A stretch of 64,000 nt of DNA. It comes from an uncultured delta proteobacterium (GTDB lineage Bacteria; Myxococcota_A; Polyangia; Palsa-1104). Made by a program: the position numbers and the translations under genes. The stretch is taken from NCBI GenBank assembly GCA_963785725.1, contig CAWAWS010000038.1:1-64000 (forward strand), written 5' to 3'. Numbering within the stretch: position 1 is the stretch's first letter; every line of letters starts with the position of its first letter. Below, in pieces: positions 9,121 through 21,713 of the stretch. Under the pieces are notes generated by a model that had not been told where the DNA came from, did not search any database, and was given only the letters and a program-made list of their open reading frames with translations.

Positions 9121-9390
9121 TCAACGACGGCAGGTGGCTTCGACGGCACCGAGGGACGCCGTGCATTGCCGCTCGAGCGTGGCACGATCGGCGCTCTTCG
9201 AAAGGCGATCGAGCTCGCGCTGCTGGCGTTGCAGATGCTCGCGCATCACGGCGCTCACCTGCGGTCCCATGCGCTGGAAGCATGACTGGTAACGCTCGAA
9301 GTATTCGCGACAGGCCGCCGGCTCACGCCGATGGCAGGCGCTCGCCGTCAGGAGCAGCGATGTACCCAGCCATACTCGCCAGGCGCTCAA
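9121..9390 (-). CDS. Small Cys-rich lipoprotein
   Basis: LLLTASAC lipobox, four further Cys, helical; TTG start overlaps the immunity gene stop (TTGA). Confidence 0.6.
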   Translation of the reverse strand: MSAWRVWLGTSLLLTASACHRREPAACREYFERYQSCFQRMGPQVSAVMREHLQRQQRELDRLSKSADRATLERQCTASLGAVEATCRR

Positions 9391-9824
9391 GCGTCACCTT
9401 GGCTGTTTACGAAGATCAGCTCGTCGTGGTCGGTGTCGAGAATGATCCAATCGTTGGCCTGGCCGACTACGTAATATTCGAAATAGATGCACTCGTTCAG
9501 TACCAGCGGTAGCCATTTCTTGTCGACGTCGAAAACCGCACGCTCCGGCCTTTCGCCGTCGGGAATGAACCACACACGTATGTCCTGTGTCGGAATGTGC
9601 TCGAGTAGATGTTGGAAGACGAACTCGTAGTCAAAGACGCGCTTGGGTAGCTTCAGGGCCAACCACCAGATACGCGGCCGGCCAACAACGAACTTATCGC
9701 GCGCCTCAGCTACCACCTTCTTTGCAGCCGCGTCGTCGAGCCGGCGGAACTCGCCGTCCGGCACGTGCAGTTGTTGCAATGCCGCCAGCACGGATGACAG
9801 CGGCGTCTCGATCTCGTCACTCAT
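9387..9824 (-). CDS. Putative immunity protein (DUF6756-like)
   Basis: Overlaps the toxin stop by 8 nt; more AT-rich codons; C-terminal FEYYVV..DWIILDTDHDELI motif. Confidence 0.75.
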   Translation of the reverse strand: MSDEIETPLSSVLAALQQLHVPDGEFRRLDDAAAKKVVAEARDKFVVGRPRIWWLALKLPKRVFDYEFVFQHLLEHIPTQDIRVWFIPDGERPERAVFDVDKKWLPLVLNECIYFEYYVVGQANDWIILDTDHDELIFVNSQGDA

Positions 9825-20200: not shown

Positions 20201-21713
20201 ACGGCGGCGCCGGCGTTTGCGCCGGATAGGGGCACAAGTTGGCGATCTTGTCGTCGAGCTGGGTCATGAGCTCGGTGGCGTGCGCAGGCGTCAGGCCGTG
20301 CTTCAGGTACAAGTCGAAGTTGCCGTAGTTGCTCGACGCGCCCACGGCAGCGACCGAGACCGGCTGGCAGGTGATCTTGCCGTTGGCGTCGGTGGTGAAG
20401 CTGTCGCAGTCGCGCGTGCGGATGGCGGCCTCGAGCGCACGGTACAAGTAATCGGCGCTGGTGGCGCGATCGATCTGCTGCGTGCAGTGGAAGAACTTCT
20501 TGGGCAGCGCCAGCAGCTTGAGGTTCAGCAGATCGAAGCCCTGCGCCAGCCGCAACAGATCGCCCACGCCCGGGTCGGTGATGCTGTCCCGCACGTAGGG
20601 CGCCTCGTACAGCGTTGGCCAATCCCAGTTGACCGGGCCCGTCAGCGGGTTCAGGTCGATGCCCGCGCGCACGGTCGGCAGCTGCTCGCCGGGGGTGGTC
20701 TTACCCCACGGATGCTGCCAAGGGGAAGTGCCATCCGCGGCCTGGGCCAAAGGATCGCCGCCGTACAAGACAGCCATGGTGCGCTCGCGCCAGCTGCCGG
20801 GGCCCCACGCGTCGTCAGCGCCGACCGCGCTGCCGCCGCGAGCCAGCCGCGCGCTGGCGCTCCGCCCGAACAGCTGCACGGTCTCGGCGGCGACGTCGAC
20901 GTCGAGCTGGAGAGCGGCCGCGAAATCAACGCCCATTCGCGTCAGCTGCTGCTGGTTTGCTTGGGCCCAGTCGCGCAGTTGATAGGTCTGCGGATCGGCG
21001 TTGGCGCCTGACAAGTCGGCGTGCGGTGCAAAGGCCACGGCCAAGGTCGCGTATTGCAGCATCGCAATCTGCGTGCGCTCGCGAATAACCTCCAGCAGCT
21101 CGCGCTGATCGGCGCCCGAGAGCAAAAGCGCCTCGCCGCTGGCCGCGCCCGGTGATATCTCGCGCAGCTTCTGCGCCAGGCAAAGGTTGAAGGGCGCCCA
21201 ACGAATGGCCTCGCCGGCTCCGGTGTCGCTCATGGCCAGCCCCGACGGCCACGGGATGGTCGTAGGCTCGATCGCGGGCGCGCCGTTCGGACCCATGTTT
21301 GGAGCCAAGGTATTCGGCTGCTCGCACGACAACTGCGAGCGCTCGTAGATCCAATCGTTGATCATCGACAGATTGGCGTTGCCACCGTCAGGACCAGCCT
21401 CGTAAGGGCAGAGGCTGCCGCGCATCCGATCGGCCACTTGCGCCAGATATTCGTCGCTCCACCCATTGAGGGAGTCGTCAAAGACGGTCCCATCGGCGAC
21501 GAACGCGCAGCTAGCGGCGGCGTCGGCTACGAACAGCTGGGTAACGCTCCCGGTCCAATGCTCAGGCACCGAGCGCAACTGCGGCGCGGGCGTATCAGCG
21601 GCGCGCAACGCCGCATGGGCGGCGGTGATGGGTGGCTCGGACGATGCGTGACAACCGGCAAGTGCGATTAGCGGAAGCAAAACGATCTCGATACGAGCCT
21701 TCATTCGCGACAT
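17232..21713 (-). CDS. Large lipoprotein, TcA-like (long helical region + C-terminal TcB-binding-like domain)
   Basis: Lipobox IALAGC; extended amphipathic helices ending ALLARRAIEARY; C-terminal RWNKVAVNLVG..DRPLGGSYELDL..LQGVQLLYTFSFW pattern; lies directly upstream of the TcB-TcC gene. The CDS is secure; the TcA call is inference. Confidence 0.7.
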   Translation of the reverse strand: MSRMKARIEIVLLPLIALAGCHASSEPPITAAHAALRAADTPAPQLRSVPEHWTGSVTQLFVADAAASCAFVADGTVFDDSLNGWSDEYLAQVADRMRGSLCPYEAGPDGGNANLSMINDWIYERSQLSCEQPNTLAPNMGPNGAPAIEPTTIPWPSGLAMSDTGAGEAIRWAPFNLCLAQKLREISPGAASGEALLLSGADQRELLEVIRERTQIAMLQYATLAVAFAPHADLSGANADPQTYQLRDWAQANQQQLTRMGVDFAAALQLDVDVAAETVQLFGRSASARLARGGSAVGADDAWGPGSWRERTMAVLYGGDPLAQAADGTSPWQHPWGKTTPGEQLPTVRAGIDLNPLTGPVNWDWPTLYEAPYVRDSITDPGVGDLLRLAQGFDLLNLKLLALPKKFFHCTQQIDRATSADYLYRALEAAIRTRDCDSFTTDANGKITCQPVSVAAVGASSNYGNFDLYLKHGLTPAHATELMTQLDDKIANLCPYPAQTPAPPYSGAFPTGALDLQGTITVASNVDGNPGSWWHISSDARFQIKQLSEVEGLYTRYARFRAPDYIDDTVPLYEQGLLSTGRTDESKRLMGAVSALSATRELIENAAAQGPGDSSVAAYLQLRPAMQSTIDGAVGGTAVSFLARAYAYQNPTTGTGELAQSMGDASTGALMYEVVIDVSPEDSWWDPTQASSYSLIAVPNNLVAAASARFANTKYAEAPSPTLNAVSASFLRTVTTSGLNANRTRWSFNISLPSRDLWTFVARHGSDTRLVTGYVNLSGFTQSLAAGAAGDSNRAIEGQYQSFDGTLNALGQRISAADDFDPSQPAWDGFGYPAHYVPPFDASLLNGQPGDTTVAAELRKADSDASSAVTQLGTAVQDMLTIAKDDQTRKANAEQAVVKIQDDLINLCGTGTTCDTSMSDFKVDFTSQWTRPVPSCPLGWRQLDGSGQPTQVDAETYMDCTVYGYIQSVSMTVSLSNVVIAHKDDPTVPPFIEFQGGTLKESLADQWTALRTLRDLSAALTSTRGSLDGKLSVAGAEAQVAGERVDDECGAGAMMLAQQAGSTLSFPPSWSPGPMIAQEDKCNEMTEDQAPANAGLYSALMDAFSTLSGQLTQFTAGAKALQDASASAAQDIMAARLAVSRDALEQAIGDLSPNLQTSFGLYRTYTNYDVFRAKGLLEQARMSALLARRAIEARYVVDLSTMSQTEPEVAAPQTWADDVYGYELDVPAAIGMTVGTQAPGAIYPYGIVDYVHNLEDFVNGYTITRPTATGGTDTNVIFLPGPIPTTTGITPPGTYSWSFFCWTGPLPNDGTWMPLPASNNLAGACGGGVTPVRARIDFSLDPWGRIDQGIAQPPLTHNYNMRWNKVAVNLVGTAVHDCTNDSSPACLQSPFVSYDLQQMGPAWITDYNQAWWNLAVPIGFIEGAKGVADELLVDYSYWSNPYISNAVRSEYIDRPLGGSYELDLNIDRDPDVFLQNLQGVQLLYTFSFWSKQQ

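Follow-up and report, generated by a model that had tools for sequence, protein, structure and literature searches.

A TcA-like lipoprotein encoded beside a signal-peptide TcB–TcC fusion: a candidate Tc-type injector in Myxococcota

Genes at the locus

The window analysed here covers the first 64 kb of contig C38 from an 8.9 Mb, 88% complete genome of an uncultured member of the Myxococcota. It contains an operon resembling Tc toxin loci, in which a large lipoprotein, here called the A-like protein, is encoded ahead of a fused B–C subunit (BC). Four open reading frames (ORFs) were confirmed in both coordinates and translation; these, and all features of the operon described below, lie on the minus strand. 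The first (17232–21713) encodes the A-like protein of 1493 amino acids (aa), which belongs to no named family and is TcA-like by its predicted fold. The second (9817–17163) encodes the 2448-aa BC protein, in which SpvB, propeller, TcdB midN, RHS cocoon and payload regions are recognised from domain and structure-database matches. It is followed by a likely immunity gene of 145–146 codons (9387–9827), which overlaps the toxin stop with an ATG at 9824, and by an 89-aa lipoprotein-like ORF (9121–9390) with a lipobox-like TASAC, which overlaps the preceding gene by 4 bases. An earlier interpretation made without database searches (the sequence-only reading) had described a four-gene unit. This holds for three of the genes; no homologue of the 89-aa ORF was found in the rest of the genome or at the compared loci, and it is therefore left out of the conserved unit.

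Predicted fold of the A-like protein

Searches of the A-like protein against named families and domains gave no match. Its lipoprotein signal peptide (21651–21713), read from the sequence, ends in the lipobox LAGC, with the cysteine at position 21. The following ~800 residues (19269–21650) are conserved in the family alignment; an Atlas search with this region was without match and profile comparisons were negative. It may form a shell or receptor-binding part.

The sequence-only reading had proposed that the C-terminal half resembles the TcA channel and TcB-binding domain, and this likeness is found in a predicted single-chain model. Residues 816–852 (19158–19268), mostly without regular structure according to DSSP of the model, lie at the place of the TcA linker. 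This candidate linker has ~37 residues, compared with ~48 in TcA, its span depending on the N-terminal part that lies outside the model; the linker of YenA2 comprises residues 813–861, and the structural alignment begins at YenA2 851 and TcdA1 2008. Next comes a predicted channel hairpin (18129–19157, from the model and structural alignment), in which helices 853–908 and 998–1060 run down and helices 1073–1150 and 1160–1195 run up, with a Cys-rich insert at 909–997. From the residue count, the hairpin would be about 170–180 Å long, versus about 250 Å in YenTcA. Its tip (18468–18569) is the previously noted Cys-bracketed loop, placed by the family alignment between the conserved Cys1049 and Cys1082; in relatives it is a variable Ser/Gly-rich loop, frequently with GFP at its apex, between fixed cysteines. 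The ARRAIEARY motif is likewise present. The model and structural alignment end with funnel helices and a terminal β-sandwich (17235–18128), which contain an inserted Cys-containing subdomain, and the sandwich aligns to the TcB-binding domain of TcA.

The order of candidate linker, hairpin, funnel and β-sandwich is wholly kept relative to TcA, and the pairing of an extended helical hairpin with a TcB-binding β-sandwich, by which a TcA is recognised, occurs in the predicted single chain at a low TM-score. Residues in the funnel and terminal domain are near-invariant among 135 sequences of the family, and identity to classical TcA is 8–14%. Homology of the 1493-aa protein to TcA is considered highly probable.

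The BC protein and its payload

The 2448-aa protein is, as first read, a signal-peptide SpvB/TcB–Rhs fusion. It has a signal-like N-terminus, an SpvB domain (residues 108–312), FG-GAP repeats, TcdB_toxin_midN (774–926) and an RHS core (2095–2179) with DPxG, the composition expected of a TcB–TcC fusion. Its best solved relatives are TcdB1, YenB, TccC2 and YenC2. TcdB_toxin_midC (PF12255) gave no match at an E-value of 0.1; it is present in a classical BC elsewhere in the genome, on contig C33. The FG-GAP β-propeller, at about residues 461–825 (14689–15783; limits estimated from domain and structure matches), may be the docking face for the A subunit. The RHS-associated core (10627–10881, by domain match and sequence) ends in DPQG (2175–2178), the putative site of an autocleavage that would free a 269-aa payload.

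At the front of this payload an uncharged Gly-rich stretch can be read from the sequence (residues 2230–2275; 10339–10476), a candidate membrane-crossing segment. The payload was unnamed in the sequence-only reading; residues 2340–2436 (9856–10146) match the toxin domain Ntox47 (E 1.4e-23; 83.8 bits against a cut-off of 25), and D2395, H2407 and H2411 are spaced as D192, H204 and H208 of Salmonella Rhs2, a comparison of spacing and not of alignment. According to a preprint (bioRxiv 10.64898/2026.05.10.723254), Salmonella Rhs2 is an Ntox47-fold toxin that kills E. coli, with D192 and H204 required and SciX able to rescue; a second preprint assigns Ntox47 to a BECR-like RNase superfamily.

The product of 9387–9827 matches DUF6756 below the cut-off (23.1 versus 27 bits) and, judging from its sequence and position, is likely to be the immunity protein for the Ntox47 payload. 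Third-position GC is 0.69 in the toxin tip and 0.73 in the immunity-like gene, compared with 0.81 and 0.85 in the core genes. Lower third-position GC is a frequent trait of swapped cassettes.

Among 20 payload tips compared there was one related pair. Besides Ntox47 in the window, named tips are Tox-HNH-HHH followed by a SUKH gene, and HINT with Tox-ART-HYD1 followed by DUF6881; weaker matches are to WHH (just below cut-off), a deaminase and Peptidase_M91. One tip matches L-alanyl-D-glutamate peptidase and LysB4 (E 1e-8). The substrate of this peptidase is the bacterial wall. The antibacterial nature proposed for the payload gains support from Ntox47, the other tips and the peptidoglycan peptidase. 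A small abutting gene lies behind nine of the 20 complete BC genes; none lies behind the other 11, one of which is at a contig end.

Export signals

Signals were judged by a crude lipobox pattern and a hydrophobic N-terminal stretch. On this basis the signal peptides proposed for both partners are supported, by the lipobox in the A-like protein and by the hydrophobic stretch in BC, whose Sec-type signal peptide is read from the sequence as ~30 aa (17074–17163). A lipobox-like pattern occurs in 102 of 142 A relatives of at least 1400 aa. Among the misses are truncated starts and also several signal peptides of the ordinary kind that lack the cysteine; because of the latter the lipid anchor is not universal in the family. 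A signal-like stretch begins 20 of 21 complete BC relatives and neither of two BC proteins beside classical TcA.

Conservation of the A–BC pair

Adjacency of the two genes, set beforehand as a test of the pairing, was found in both genomes and metagenomes. A BC gene of the same clade stands beside the A-like gene at 18 of 23 genome loci. Of the five remaining loci, three are cut off by a contig edge and one extends just 3.3 kb downstream; the fifth consists of the upstream half of an array of four genes with a BC gene at its end. In metagenomes BC adjoins A at 19 of 33 loci, and at each of the 15 where 5 kb or more lies downstream (two of these are duplicates). The spacing is that of a Tc locus, with a tcA-type gene within ~10 kb of tcB/tcC. 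A lipoprotein-like gene of 460–960 aa frequently lies between the two.

The A family occurs in 16 of 401 genomes of the phylum (one match weak, one with stops). A BC query divides genomes into 14 that score at least 405 bits and another 60 that score at most 160 bits; 12 of the 14 carry the A family, and in the other two the hits lie at contig ends. It is likely that the A-like protein works with this BC.

At L010, L012, L018, L137 and L141, two to four different A-like genes stand in tandem, and in two of these arrays a single BC gene comes last; such arrays could reflect mixed oligomers or alternative targeting. Within single genomes, the locus pairs L089/L090 and L008/L015 have almost identical BC cores and divergent A proteins, and in L089/L090 the payloads differ too. 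Several A-like proteins (P0005, P0038, P0041, P0048 and P0061) carry add-on domains: PF01833, TSP_3, CPL1-like, CBM_3 and choice-of-anchor Z. The A-like protein has named relatives in Polyangiaceae, Polyangiales, Myxococcales and other Deltaproteobacteria.

Sequence links to TcA

The A family matches a longer subfamily of 2100–2400 aa (z 18.5), which in turn matches a third secreted family (L119) with an hhalign value of 95.9%. The terminal domains of the longer subfamily and of the L119 family beat all 100 block shuffles against classical TcA in a purpose-written aligner (z 3.4 and 5.6). Taken from sequence comparison, the link between the A family and classical TcA would thus be a remote homology, transitive through two other secreted families, and not sequence membership. 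Proteins at L119 (529–6231) and L117 (7414–11040) are secreted, have a TcA-like C-terminal layout by sequence and lie near signal-peptide BC genes. The L119-type family numbers at least 446 proteins, with a lipobox-like pattern in 90 of 108, and has a member in Vulgatibacter incomptus.

Comparison with known systems

The locus is Tc-like in predicted structure and gene order, and departs from Tc in TcA sequence membership, signals, immunity and payload. Like the classical toxins (Photorhabdus TcdA1–TcdB2–TccC3, Yersinia YenTc and Xenorhabdus XptA), it has an A subunit with a helical hairpin and TcB-binding sandwich, here as a predicted fold and preceded by a candidate linker. In both, the BC cocoon contains SpvB, a propeller and an RHS core, and carries a variable tail behind a cleavage site that is putative here. 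The locus differs in that both subunits carry signal peptides, A with a lipobox, and in its A subunit of 1493 aa versus ~2500, which has disulfide-like Cys pairs and a predicted channel of lesser length and in which VRP1, neuraminidase and ABC_toxin_N domains were not detected. A further difference is the presence of immunity-like genes and antibacterial payloads at A–BC loci. The classical combination of no signal peptide, no immunity gene and a eukaryotic target is not the one seen here. Classical Tc toxins are not known to carry signal peptides.

Classical TcA is found in 23 of the 401 genomes, separately from the A family, and the genome of the window is one of them. Its classical Tc locus (C33:371359–389301 and 398712–409544; L025–L027) encodes a 2567-aa BC and a 3197-aa TcA with VRP1, ABC_toxin_N, neuraminidase and TcB-binding domains, neither with a signal peptide, and adjoins a 3610-aa ZU5–SpvB–Rhs gene and a gene for a 1521-aa protein with a PI-PLC match. 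Elsewhere, at L120 (5676–9233), a compact 1185-aa TcA without a signal peptide and with a weak PF18276 match (69 bits) adjoins a 1949-aa BC gene.

The toxin half is already known. The TcdB/TcaC class of Zhang et al. (2012; PMC3482391), which includes delta-proteobacteria, combines signal peptide, SpvB, integrin-like propeller, RHS repeats and a variable toxin, and the 2448-aa protein has all these traits and is a member. Table 1 of that paper lists signal-peptide SpvB–propeller–Rhs toxins, several of them with immunity genes; in its available portion TcdB is the sole associated component named and no A-type partner is. The sequence-only reading had held that classical Tc toxins lack both signal peptides and immunity genes. 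The latter agrees with a 2021 survey, in which immunity proteins were found at none of 1,608 Tc loci, B–C fusions being excluded (PMC7861908), and the former with two controls; given the TcdB/TcaC class, the statement as a whole was too strong. The TcA profile of the survey, as far as its available text describes it, was built from TcdA1 relatives and would likely miss the A family. The novelty lies in the A-like partner and not in the toxin half.

With Salmonella Rhs2–SciX, as described in the preprint, the locus shares Ntox47 after DPxG, the D/H/H spacing and a small downstream gene. Rhs2 sits in a type VI secretion system (T6SS) cluster, whereas the carrier here has a Sec signal and no PAAR, and so lacks the PAAR/VgrG linkage and signal-free N-terminus of T6SS Rhs effectors. 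In agreement with the sequence-only reading, VgrG and PAAR were without match among the 33 window ORFs scanned, a subset of those in the window. T6SS-type parts exist elsewhere in the genome: C22 carries a TssC/VipB gene, and C7 encodes a VgrG-type OB-fold domain. Bacterial teneurin-like proteins (PMC13018210) are likewise Rhs-shell toxins of Myxococcota targeted through Sec and signal peptidase II, with polymorphic tips; they differ in having a single-chain FN-plug/NHL/YD fold, and the available text mentions neither an SpvB–TcdB propeller nor a TcA-like partner. A secreted or lipid-anchored TcA, or an antibacterial Tc, was not found in the literature searched, which lay mostly outside subscription journals and supplements.

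Surroundings of the operon

Downstream of the operon, 4744–8931 encodes a caspase-domain protein, an extracytoplasmic function (ECF) sigma factor, an anti-sigma-like protein and a lipoprotein of 432 aa that carries a weak MopE motif. A DDE transposase split over several short frames (22064–23319) lies 350 bases upstream, followed at 23542–28469 by a PspA/IM30 gene, an ABC transporter, a substrate-binding protein and an unnamed 280-aa gene. The low-GC contig start (30–1112) holds a retroviral-type aspartyl protease and reverse-transcriptase fragment; it looks like a piece of a eukaryotic retrotransposon, and this contig end may therefore be chimeric.

A proposed mechanism

Beyond the observed genes, signals, fold match of the single-chain model, conserved pairing and varied payloads, the interpretation favoured on balance is that the operon encodes a Sec-exported Tc-type syringe which injects polymorphic toxins into other bacteria. 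A bacterial target, taken by itself, is probable. That the syringe is surface-tethered and contact-dependent is a more tentative suggestion, to which somewhat less than even weight is given.

In this scheme, Sec would take both proteins over the inner membrane and the A subunit would be lipidated. BC would fold into an Rhs cocoon, cut itself at DPQG and keep the 269-aa tail inside. Five A subunits would form a prepore whose terminal β-sandwiches bind the BC propeller, and the complex, of ~1 megadalton, would arrive at the cell surface or on vesicles. On contact, collapse of the linker would drive the helical hairpins into the outer membrane of the target, and the payload would be threaded through. 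Wall hydrolases would act in the periplasm, while nucleases such as the Ntox47 of the window might cross the inner membrane by means of their own hydrophobic front segment. Kin would be protected by the cytoplasmic immunity protein.

The injector proposed by the sequence-only reading thus draws support from the TcA-like C-terminal fold, adjacency, signals and bacteria-directed payloads, and is weakened as to a universal lipid anchor. Several further observations weigh against it. The structural match has TM-scores of 0.18–0.30, with most root-mean-square deviations at 14–18 Å; the model has a predicted TM-score (pTM) of 0.63, and Z is inflated by the long helices. The shell and neuraminidase-like parts of TcA were undetected by sequence in the N-terminal 800 aa, a region outside the folded model. 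Direct profiles against 26 classical TcA C-termini of the same phylum were not significant (hhalign ≤1%), the A-family profile against classical TcA gave z 0.4 and −0.7, and PF18276, which marks TcA membership, did not match the 1493-aa gene. Four of the 16 genomes in which the A family was matched gave no match to BC, three same-clade BC copies have no A-like gene in the 13 kb upstream, and related genomes are non-independent samples. Only nine of 20 complete BC genes are followed by an immunity-like gene, with a single named immunity family among them. Finally, the literature searched contains no description of a Tc toxin that crosses a bacterial envelope.

Alternative explanations

The same complex could act as an inside-out exporter, in which lipid-anchored A–BC in the periplasm of the producer threads the payload out through its own outer membrane, and target entry follows another route. 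With Sec signals on both, the two proteins would encounter each other first in the periplasm; a non-systematic reading of neighbouring genes revealed no outer-membrane translocator; and PMC3482391, in the part available, treats TcdB/TcaC as an export pathway. This is nevertheless unlikely. The hairpin tip is highly variable between its fixed cysteines, extra domains, among them CBM_3, TSP_3 and choice-of-anchor Z, occur in relatives, and up to four A genes precede one BC; because of these traits target recognition fits better than export. A released wall hydrolase or nuclease would, moreover, still require entry.

Alternatively, the syringe could be used against eukaryotes such as protists, fungi or nematodes, its tips being drawn from a common polymorphic pool and immunity serving only against failed export. 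The matched solved structures come from insect and animal pathogens, the 2021 survey has Tc toxins targeting eukaryotes (PMC7861908), and the 11 payloads without an immunity-like neighbour and the weak Peptidase_M91 resemblance would also fit. A peptidoglycan peptidase payload, and the SUKH and other tightly coupled small genes behind several nucleases, argue against this explanation, as does the separate signal-free TcA–BC locus kept by the same genome; it is rated as improbable, slightly more so than export.

Least likely is a stand-alone secreted Rhs toxin displayed on a TcA-derived surface stalk or scaffold that has lost its channel: solo BC copies, the locus pairs with like BC cores and unlike A proteins, and the Myxococcota teneurin-like Rhs toxins, predicted lipoproteins for which no A subunit is named in the available text (PMC13018210), would suit it, but the order from candidate linker to sandwich is complete in the model, the funnel and terminal-domain residues are near-invariant and the BC clade is almost limited to genomes with the A family.

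Implications

A wider and still more tentative reading of the injector is that Myxococcota harbour an unrecognised superfamily of TcA-like injectors, exported by Sec and for the most part lipid-anchored, that fire polymorphic nucleases and wall hydrolases into neighbouring or prey bacteria. It would comprise at least the A family, the 2100–2400 aa subfamily and the Vulgatibacter-type family, in well over a thousand clusters. Signal-peptide TcdB–Rhs toxins were described in 2012, and the available portion of that account (PMC3482391) names no entry device; the A-like protein, which escapes family searches, is a candidate for one. The locus makes it testable whether a Tc-type channel can deliver protein across a bacterial envelope. 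If the interpretation is correct, loaded Tc syringes on the cell surface would constitute a form of contact-dependent killing distinct from T6SS, contact-dependent growth inhibition (CDI) and outer-membrane exchange, and could represent the ancestral function of the Tc machine. For the myxobacteria they would likely be an extra weapon in predation and kin conflict, and a large unannotated family would gain a fold.
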